DNA from: a virus
Lineage: Duplodnaviria > Heunggongvirae > Uroviricota > Caudoviricetes
Length of the DNA stretch: 8,854 nt
Direction: 5' to 3' (one strand)
IMG/VR virus record: IMGVR_UViG_2778261069_000005
Span: 1-8,854 of that record
Positions 3,208 through 3,687 of the stretch are shown in pieces. The notes beneath the pieces are model-generated. The model had not been told where the DNA came from. It was given only the letters and a program-made list of their open reading frames with translations, and did no database searches. How positions within the stretch are numbered: position 1 is the stretch's first letter; every line of letters starts with the position of its first letter. Position numbers and translations under genes: made by a program.

Positions 3208-3657
3208 ATGGAAGAACAGGCAAATAAGATTCTCATAGAACTATTGCAAAAAGCCAGTAATGGAATAGACGCGGCTGTCTCATTTAGCCAGGCACAGATT
3301 CCTGATGTTGTTCATCAGTTACTGCTATGGAATATGGTTGACAGTCTGATTAAAACATTAATAGCCATTTTAACAATCCCGCTGGTTTTCTGGTTTATGA
3401 AGAAACAGTGCCAAAAAGTTGAAATTGGTAAGTTCGATGATGAAGGATGGTCATGGGATAAGGGGAAGACTAAATACAAACCGACTATGATTTGGGAAAG
3501 TAACGGTGAGATTAGTTTTCTAATCTTACCATTAGCTGCAGTTTTTGTTCTGTGGGTAAGTTTTATTATTGCTGTAGTAACCAATATGACTTGGTTAAAA
3601 ATTTGGCTGGCCCCAAAGCTTTACCTTATCGAATATGCAGCATCATTGGTTAAGTAA
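3208..3657 (+). CDS. Hypothetical inner-membrane protein with two predicted transmembrane helices; possible superinfection-exclusion function by position
   Basis: 149 aa. Shine-Dalgarno GAGGTG upstream. Hydrophobic segments around LIKTLIAILTIPLVFWFM and ISFLILPLAAVFVLWVSFIIAVV, separated by a lysine-rich loop. Sits where lambda carries ral/sieB, between N and ea10. Confidence 0.7.
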   Translation: MEEQANKILIELLQKASNGIDAAVSFSQAQIPDVVHQLLLWNMVDSLIKTLIAILTIPLVFWFMKKQCQKVEIGKFDDEGWSWDKGKTKYKPTMIWESNGEISFLILPLAAVFVLWVSFIIAVVTNMTWLKIWLAPKLYLIEYAASLVK

Positions 3658-3661
3658 TTTT

Positions 3662-3687
3662 AGGCCGCATAGTCGGCCTTTATTTTT
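3662..3687 (+). terminator. Intrinsic terminator after the membrane-protein gene
   Basis: AGGCCG / CGGCCT stem (3662-3679) followed by TTTATTTTT. Confidence 0.7.

Follow-up and report, generated by a model that had tools for sequence, protein, structure and literature searches.

The stretch analysed here (the window) comprises 8,854 nucleotides of the IMG/VR virus record IMGVR_UViG_2778261069_000005 (positions 1 to 8,854), and contains the immunity and early-left region of a lambdoid Escherichia prophage, with pL transcription running along the + strand. The subject of this report is a gene located between the antitermination gene N and an ea10-like DUF2528 gene (Table 1), which encodes a 149 amino acid protein with two predicted membrane passes. 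The location given in the initial annotation was correct; in lambda the same interval carries sieB, orf28 and ral, and ral is absent from the window. Genes cIII, kil, gam, bet and exo and the exo-xis region lie downstream of the ea10-like gene. Segment 3150-3750, which covers the gene and its flanks, is 100% identical to E. coli strain SLK172 and several chicken isolates, and the whole window matches these at about 99.5%.

The open reading frame (ORF) starts with ATG and ends with TAA, and the product was confirmed to have two hydrophobic segments: Kyte-Doolittle 19-residue windows peaked at 2.0 around residues 43-64 (TM1, the first transmembrane helix) and at 2.8 around residues 104-126 (TM2). 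The loop between them had been described as lysine-rich, and 8 Lys are indeed found in its 39 residues, but with 7 Asp or Glu its net charge is only +1 and it is nearly neutral. The hydrophobic moment of residues 3-20 is 0.52; the C-terminal 22 residues have a mean Eisenberg hydrophobicity of 0.41 and contain 3 Lys and 1 Glu. We regard it as nearly certain that the product is an integral inner-membrane protein with the identity, architecture and operon placement described here.

Comparison with PHROG profiles revealed a full-length match to PHROG 3054 (E = 4.2e-61; residues 1-149 against profile positions 1-137 of 137), a group annotated without function, and the same profile was matched by all of the 75 diverse relatives that were aligned. 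Members of the family are named 'hypothetical protein', 'TM helix-containing protein' or, in UniProt, 'phage transmembrane protein', and one annotator points to similarity with 'gene 34 protein [Shigella phage Sf6]'. The PHROG 3054 members of Sf6 (gene 34 protein), CUS-3 (ECRS218_0047), HF4s (annotated 'TM helix-containing protein'), phi92 (gp220), Oslo (AMBK_46) and SPN9CC (AEW47744.1), the last two being Salmonella phages, have the same end motifs and two-helix core as the window protein, and those in P22-like and lambda-like phages occupy the same kind of slot, after N or ral. The window gene is a long-loop allele (39 residues), whereas P22-like phages mostly carry short-loop alleles of 121-140 amino acids, to which the window protein is only about 48% identical overall because the centres are unrelated.

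Scans of the window protein against Pfam, NCBIfam and PADLOC gave no match even at E <= 1, and a Pfam scan of the 75 diverse members gave scattered single chance matches with no consistent family. Sequence searches of the PDB with two profiles returned nothing meaningful, and no structural analogue was found for the AlphaFold2 model described below. A literature text search on the family motifs returned zero papers, and no characterisation of the family was found by keyword searches of the literature or in the genome papers of phages epsilon34 and L. A scan of viral contigs recovered close relatives only (at least 79% identical), and the metagenomic representatives examined were mostly short contigs. 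The gene is thus one that has been catalogued already, in a family that is uncharacterised. Small accessory membrane proteins are a familiar kind of phage product, but this family is unrelated to every characterised example and its design is distinctive.

That design emerged from the 75-sequence alignment, in which mean identity is 28% and only the first ~42 and last ~22 residues are nearly invariant. The consensus of the N-terminal block is MNEQAxxxLxxLLxKAxxGxDxAVxFSQAQIPDVIxQLLxW and that of the C-terminal block is WLKIWIAPKLYLIEYAASLVK. Residues F26, P32, K137 and Y143 are invariant, and the remaining motif residues (Q37-L-L-x-W41; I132, A-P-K137, L140, E-Y143) are at least 90% conserved; all are present in the window protein. 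Between the blocks the membrane helices and the loop vary freely, and no conserved sequence was found in the loop. Exactly two hydropathy peaks were nevertheless seen in 67 of the 75 members, and for a short homologue two such segments are likewise counted by TMHMM (bioRxiv 10.1101/2023.04.06.535777, Suppl. File 3).

AlphaFold2 modelling with the 75-sequence alignment gave a mean predicted local distance difference test score (pLDDT) of 87.9 and a predicted template modelling score (pTM) of 0.64, superseding an earlier run on a shallow alignment (pLDDT 68). The model contains helices at residues 2-68, 106-125 (TM2), 128-134 and 136-148; the N-terminal helix runs into TM1 as one continuous helix (2-68), and the loop is loosely structured. 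Since the protein crosses the membrane twice, both conserved ends should lie on one side of it, and therefore the ends are taken as the working part and the membrane helices and loop as anchor and spacer. In the family as a whole, acidic residues prevail in the N-terminal tail (mean net charge -3.5), and Lys and Arg are more frequent just after TM1 (2.8 versus 0.7 per 12 residues). By the positive-inside rule this mildly favours a topology in which the conserved ends would be periplasmic and the loop cytoplasmic.

In 50 distinct 149-codon alleles the ratio of nonsynonymous to synonymous substitution rates (dN/dS) was 0.08 in the N-terminal 42 codons, 0.13 in TM1, 0.22 in the loop, 1.05 in TM2 and 0.11 in the C-terminal 23 codons. 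Both ends are under strong purifying selection, while TM2 needs only to be hydrophobic and evolves neutrally. The synonymous rate (dS) of the loop exceeds that of the flanking segments, which suggests a separate recombination history for the loop. Positive selection on the loop was considered and rejected, as dN/dS is 0.22 there; only TM2 approaches 1, and this was read as relaxed constraint.

The gene is real and not a chance ORF. The exact window protein is present on 229 public contigs, homologues in Enterobacteriaceae form 520 clusters at 90% identity, and a profile search of 1.84 billion representatives returned 2,466 clusters (50% identity) at E <= 1e-3 and 1,123 at E <= 1e-10. That the window is a prophage fragment bounded by insertion sequences (IS) might point to a non-functional locus, either a chance ORF or a decaying remnant. 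The probability of this is negligible, given that the ORF is intact and the identical protein recurs on so many contigs, that three of the five segments are under strong purifying selection, that thousands of homologues keep the length and the motifs, and that the AlphaFold2 model is confident. An 89 amino acid ORF on the opposite strand (3315-3584) was considered and rejected: it is probably spurious, as both the pattern of selection and every homologue agree with the + frame.

Using tblastn, the family was found in 181 phage records, which span temperate P22-like and lambda-like phages, virulent phi92-like myoviruses, N4-like podoviruses, many Vibrio phages, and phages of Pseudomonas and Rheinheimera. 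It is in this distribution that the findings depart most from the initial annotation. At least four kinds of position were distinguished. The gene in the window, HF4s, CUS-3 and Oslo is located in the pL operon after N, N-ral or N-sieB. Among 81 loci of close relatives, ral is just upstream in 14 and sieB just upstream, on the opposite strand, in 9. The initial annotation had placed the gene in the sieB/ral slot; co-occurrence with ral and sieB means that the family gene adds to them and is no substitute.

In the second position the gene follows the holin-endolysin-Rz/spanin genes on the same strand. This arrangement was seen in 11 of 38 species-level bacterial genomes (about 30%) and in two metagenomic or assembly loci (together L099, L101, L107, L115, L116, L118, L119, L120, L122, L124, L127, L133 and L135), with hosts including Pantoea, Buttiauxella, Dryocola, Proteus, Providencia, Xenorhabdus and Yersinia. 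At most of these loci the gene comes directly after the spanin gene, often with a 7-nucleotide gap or an overlap of 4-20 nucleotides; a KilA-N/ANT gene intervenes in L119 and L122. Neighbouring families are Rz (PF03245), DUF2514, lysozyme and Peptidase_M15_4. The third position is that of a lone gene in opposite orientation inside structural modules: it is accompanied by a bidirectional terminator in Vibrio phage K366, adjoins the terminase gene in a Pseudomonas lundensis prophage, and lies between the portal and terminase genes in a Rahnella prophage. In virulent phages, finally, the gene is found among early or DNA-metabolism genes. In contigs like Pseudomonas phages Lyrsu01 and Bjorn (L095, L096, L098, L091) it closes a run of small early genes and immediately precedes a cluster, conserved in this clade, that comprises Peptidase_C26, GATase_6/7, COOH-NH2 ligase and amidoligase genes. 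No neighbour is conserved across the family loci; therefore, the protein must act either by itself or together with a component that is conserved in hosts from Vibrio to Achromobacter.

The boundaries of the gene were compared among phages. On the left, only the ribosome-binding site is common to copies that follow N, ral or sieB; on the right, the hairpin arms are conserved together with the gene in the window, CUS-3 and HF4s, and outside the cassette the sequence agrees with that of lambda and other phages, upstream as far as the ribosome-binding site and downstream from the T-run onward. The hairpin (3662-3679) has a 6 bp stem with 5 G-C pairs and is followed by the T-run TTTATTTTT. It had been called a strong terminator and the gene's own. 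A hairpin with T-run does follow the gene, but at -12.6 kcal/mol and z = -2.1 it is moderate; and although the hairpin goes with the gene, the T-run and the sequence downstream are those of the lambda ral-ea10 intergenic region. From the T-run to the start of ea10 the window is nearly identical to that region, including a second hairpin at 3805-3826; we take this to be the lambda tL2 terminator region. Five terminator-like sites were found in the region, versus 1.8 expected in shuffled sequences.

The G + C content of the gene is 37.3% versus 52% in bet and exo, which bears out the earlier remark that it is more AT-rich than the Red genes. It is also mosaic in comparison with the CUS-3 gene: at the DNA level the two copies are 86-98% identical at the ends and 27-46% in the centre; therefore the centre has been exchanged or replaced independently of the ends. 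In CUS-3 the sequence GGCCTTTATTTTTG occurs on both sides of the cassette (L004, ~2950-2990 and ~3440-3470), once after ral, as in lambda, and once after the family gene. This duplication suggests that insertion in CUS-3 may have occurred by recombination at a terminator. Overall, the gene is a self-contained accessory cassette, made up of a ribosome-binding site, an ORF and a terminator hairpin, that has been spliced into many operon junctions in many types of phage. Morons, a concept of Hendrix and colleagues, are autonomous accessory cassettes such as lambda bor and lom. The window gene resembles them in its atypical base composition, its terminator hairpin and its conserved neighbours on either side, and in some lineages the family is found after the lysis cassette or within late operons, as morons are. 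It differs in that the window copy has no promoter-like site of its own and that the family occurs in virulent phages too.

The expression of the gene was considered from the layout of the window. Between the stop of N (3149) and the ATG of the gene (3208) there is a 58-nucleotide gap on the same strand, in which a consensus scan found neither a promoter-like nor a terminator-like site. A promoter belonging to the gene itself was rejected: the scan of 3040-3207, which could miss a weak promoter, found no promoter-like site, and the 5′ flank is not conserved beyond the ribosome-binding site. The gene probably shares the immediate-early pL transcript with N, the first terminator being downstream of the gene. 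On this layout the protein would appear within minutes after infection or induction, at a stage when antitermination by N is not yet required, and the gene would be silent while cI represses pL in the prophage; silence is expected because the gene is on the pL strand behind N with no promoter-like site. The cI transcript itself would end before pL, at a hairpin and T-run around 2436-2462.

None of the tests run supported the role in superinfection exclusion or abortive infection that the initial annotation had proposed, and it is by analogy alone that such a role is considered here. Remote homology to SieB, Imm or other exclusion proteins was not detected: hhalign comparison of the 75-sequence alignment with lambda SieB, lambda RexB and T4 Imm gave a probability of 0.1% each, the Pfam models of SieB (PF14163) and Imm (PF14373) did not match the window protein at E <= 1, and no annotated exclusion or anti-defence PHROG was among the matches of the window protein or the 75 members. 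Among precedents for early membrane proteins that keep later phage DNA out, T4 Imm is the best known. Like the window protein it is a small inner-membrane phage protein with two membrane helices (TMHMM = 2) and is made early; unlike it, Imm has short termini, whereas long conserved termini are the main feature here, and the two show no sequence or profile similarity. HK97 gp15 is a prophage inner-membrane protein that blocks DNA entry. It and P22 SieA are, like the window protein, small inner-membrane accessory proteins inserted as autonomous cassettes. There is no PHROG or Pfam link to either, and both are prophage-expressed, whereas the window copy is apparently pL-dependent. P22 SieA is described as a prophage inner-membrane protein blocking DNA entry (mBio 2024). 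Lambda Ral is a slot-mate: the order N, ral, family gene is that of CUS-3 and of the 14 relatives mentioned above, and the two are early accessory genes that share the terminator region in which they end. Ral differs in being small and soluble and has no similarity to the window protein.

Among the possible functions, superinfection exclusion at the level of the envelope is tentatively ranked first, as a possibility that falls short of being probable. In this reading a host component of the inner membrane or periplasm, kept across gamma- and beta-Proteobacteria, would be the binding partner of the conserved helical module, and the infected or induced cell would become refractory to the entry of further phage genomes, much as with T4 Imm although the two proteins are unrelated. 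Lambdoid phages carry exclusion and conversion genes, such as bor, lom and HK97 gp15, in particular slots, and those used by the family (after N, after the lysis cassette, and alone in late operons) are of this kind. The charge pattern mildly favours periplasmic ends, and the few small phage accessory proteins of the inner membrane that have been characterised, T4 Imm and P22 SieA, block DNA entry. Several findings weigh against this ranking. The window protein has no homology to any characterised exclusion protein by Pfam, PHROG, PADLOC or profile comparison. In 11 of the 38 genomes the gene is tightly coupled to the holin, endolysin and spanin genes; this implies that it is expressed late, an odd stage at which to exclude other phages. 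The range of exclusion proteins is usually narrow, whereas the ends of this family are almost invariant in hosts from Vibrio to Achromobacter. The loops of short-loop members are acidic, so that the topology is ambiguous and in these members points to cytoplasmic ends. Finally, the 121 amino acid short-loop member of SPN9CC (AEW47744.1) was included as UDP0047 in the 200-gene accessory library that Silas and colleagues subjected to phage challenge in wild E. coli; it was not among the genes with any phenotype, while Imm and Cor were recovered as exclusion hits in the same pooled screen (bioRxiv 10.1101/2023.04.06.535777). No entry for UDP0047 was found in the screen log, and in the log entries examined the challenge phages named are the T-series and P1 only. 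As the authors call exclusion effects variable, the result is weak negative evidence only.

The evidence does not cleanly separate exclusion from a role in host takeover or in lysis timing. Ranked second, and rather unlikely, is counter-defence or host takeover, in which cytoplasm-facing conserved helices would neutralise a conserved inner-membrane protein of the host early in infection; a membrane-bound abortive-infection effector, FtsH/HflKC, or a division or transport protein would be candidate targets. This would parallel the pL neighbours ral, cIII, kil and gam, whose products act on soluble targets. Co-transcription with N gives the timing that such a role needs, the gene shares its region with ral (in CUS-3 and in 14 of the 81 loci), it is among the early genes in virulent phages, ends that hardly vary from host to host would suit a target conserved among hosts, and the acidic loops of short-loop members would fit a topology with both termini inside. 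In Candidimonas nitroreducens (L134, 2995-4638) the protein encoded upstream, of 548 amino acids, has an N-terminal Lar domain (PF14354), which echoes the ral neighbour. Against this role, the ECOR accessory-gene screen records neither a counter-defence nor a cell-death-trigger phenotype for the short homologue, the slots after the lysis cassette and alone on the opposite strand of late modules do not fit an early role, no PADLOC model matched (PADLOC holding defence-system models only), and no annotated anti-defence PHROG was found. A modulator of lysis timing or envelope integrity, for example an antiholin-like brake or a factor conditioning the inner membrane before holin triggering, was placed third and is unlikely. 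It would account for a small membrane protein whose gene is recurrently and tightly linked to the spanin genes on the same strand (in the 11 genomes and two further loci), and early expression would be compatible with it, as the T4 antiholin RI is made early. Yet the window and most close relatives carry the gene in the early-left operon, a long way from the genes for lysis, and in virulent phages, too, it does not adjoin them. The position behind Rz is itself a hot spot in which accessory genes in general are found, lambda bor being an example. A direct holin partner is itself unlikely because the adjoining holins belong to different families while the ends of the protein are invariant. Homology to lysis proteins was also looked for, and no Pfam holin or antiholin family was found in the 75 members and no lysis PHROG was matched. 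Of the features of holins, location in a lysis cassette applies to part of the family and not to the window, and the highly charged hydrophilic C-terminal tail is replaced by a hydrophobic one.

The narrower proposal of the initial annotation, that of a prophage-expressed exclusion or abortive-infection protein filling the role of SieB, has a low probability. SieB of lambda and P22 is also membrane-associated and is encoded in the same accessory region next to N, and the position of the window gene between N and ea10 agrees with this. Stand-alone copies on the opposite strand in other prophages must moreover have their own promoters and could be expressed in the lysogen. However, SieB has its own promoter, acts by abortive infection, and in lambda and Oslo is encoded on the strand opposite to pL, whereas the window gene is on the pL strand, with neither a promoter-like site nor a conserved 5′ flank, and pL is repressed in the lysogen. 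The two proteins are not homologous by the hhalign and PF14163 comparisons given above, their genes coexist in Oslo and in 9 of the 81 related loci, and the family is common in virulent phages.

Returning to exclusion at the envelope and to takeover, we suggest, with considerable doubt, that the family may be a new class of phage envelope effector. A two-pass anchor would present a near-invariant three-helix module to an inner-membrane or periplasmic machine shared by gamma- and beta-Proteobacteria. The class would be used by temperate and virulent siphoviruses, podoviruses and myoviruses, and its mechanism of exclusion or takeover would be unrelated to those of Imm, SieA, SieB, Cor and gp15.

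Small phage membrane proteins encoded outside the lysis cassette are a recurring source of mechanisms of exclusion and host manipulation, and few of their families have been characterised. The present family is unusually widespread, with about 2,500 clusters at 50% identity and 181 sequenced phages of very different types, and has no Pfam entry. Such a design, in which an expendable anchor joins two invariant ends at the membrane, suggests that there is a conserved target in the host; in E. coli K-12 this could be sought with simple pull-down experiments or by suppressor genetics. A gene of this kind behind N is no surprise to the specialist; it is the breadth of the family and its near-invariant ends that make it a good and cheap experimental target. 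Should its function prove mundane, a gene carried by thousands of enterobacterial prophages would still gain a tidier annotation.

Table 1. Features of the window around the two-pass membrane protein gene.
Feature	Position	Strand	Basis or remark
cII	150-449	-	Pfam scan, RefSeq annotation
cro-like gene	588-821	-	
cI/LexA-type repressor gene	935-1639	+	
Two small ORFs at the rex position, downstream of cI	1908-2270 and 2286-2414		
Candidate pL-like sigma-70 promoter, TTGTCA-17-TAAAGT	2658-2686	+	Consensus scan, 9/12 matches; weak, sequence-only; would drive N and the membrane protein gene
nutL-like site: boxA-like GCTCTTTAAACAA, boxB-like hairpin TGGCTGAAAAGCCA	2734-2779	+	Read from the sequence; named by analogy with lambda nutL
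Antitermination protein N	2877-3149	+	PF25694 N_peptide, E = 2.3e-32; RefSeq coding sequence in SLK172
Shine-Dalgarno sequence GAGGTGA	3198-3204	+	Sequence; conserved in homologues
Gene of the 149 amino acid two-pass membrane protein (PHROG 3054, Sf6 gp34-like)	3208-3657	+	
Codons 1-42, acidic N-terminal helix, conserved, with motif FSQAQIPDVxxQLLxW; runs on into TM1 in the model	3208-3333	+	dN/dS 0.08, alignments, AlphaFold2
Codons 43-64, TM1, variable across the family	3334-3399	+	Hydropathy
Codons 65-103, Lys-rich and Trp-rich loop	3400-3516	+	Hypervariable length (11 to >60 amino acids) and sequence in the family
Codons 104-126, TM2, neutral evolution	3517-3585	+	Hydropathy 2.8, dN/dS 1.05
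Codons 127-149, conserved hydrophobic C-terminal helix, motif WLKIWxAPKLYLIEYAASLVK	3586-3654	+	dN/dS 0.11, AlphaFold2
Terminator-like hairpin and T-run	3662-3687	+	Hairpin arms go with the gene, T-run common to lambda
Second terminator-like hairpin (8 bp) and T-run	3805-3834	+	About 95% identical to the lambda ral-ea10 intergenic region
ea10-like DUF2528 gene, downstream neighbour	3853-4221	+	PF10800, E = 1.8e-47; RefSeq annotation

Other features of the window are as follows. The position of the candidate pL-like promoter, upstream of nutL and N, agrees with the layout of lambda. For the boxB-like hairpin TGGCTGAAAAGCCA, a 5-bp stem capped by a GAAA tetraloop is a possible reading, in place of the lambda pentaloop. 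The start of N was placed according to RefSeq; a longer ORF begins at 2805. The sole Rfam match in the window is the lambda cIII thermoregulator RF01804 (88.5 bits) at 4281-4339, which overlaps the start of cIII; an RNA element in the region of the membrane protein gene was accordingly considered and rejected.

Neither of the two ORFs at the rex position had a match in Pfam, NCBIfam or PADLOC; the first (120 amino acids) belongs to PHROG 13858 and the second (42 amino acids) to PHROG 12503. The hairpin and T-run at ~2436-2462, GC-rich and read by eye, follow these ORFs, and the arrangement suggests that they are co-transcribed with the repressor gene. As the layout fits such co-transcription, they are better candidates for prophage-expressed exclusion than the membrane protein gene.

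The ends of the window (4-127 and 8731-8854) form a perfect 124-nucleotide inverted repeat. Each arm corresponds to the end portion of an IS3-family element and was found in 4,082 of 5,426 E. coli genomes. Either the segment from cII to DUF551 is bracketed by two inverted IS3 copies, or the contig ends in a collapsed IS. The replication and late genes seen in SLK172 are not adjacent in the window. In SLK172 the ea22-like gene (L001, 13266-15725) is broken by IS100, and the window carries an intact ORF of 201 amino acids at about 7361-7966.

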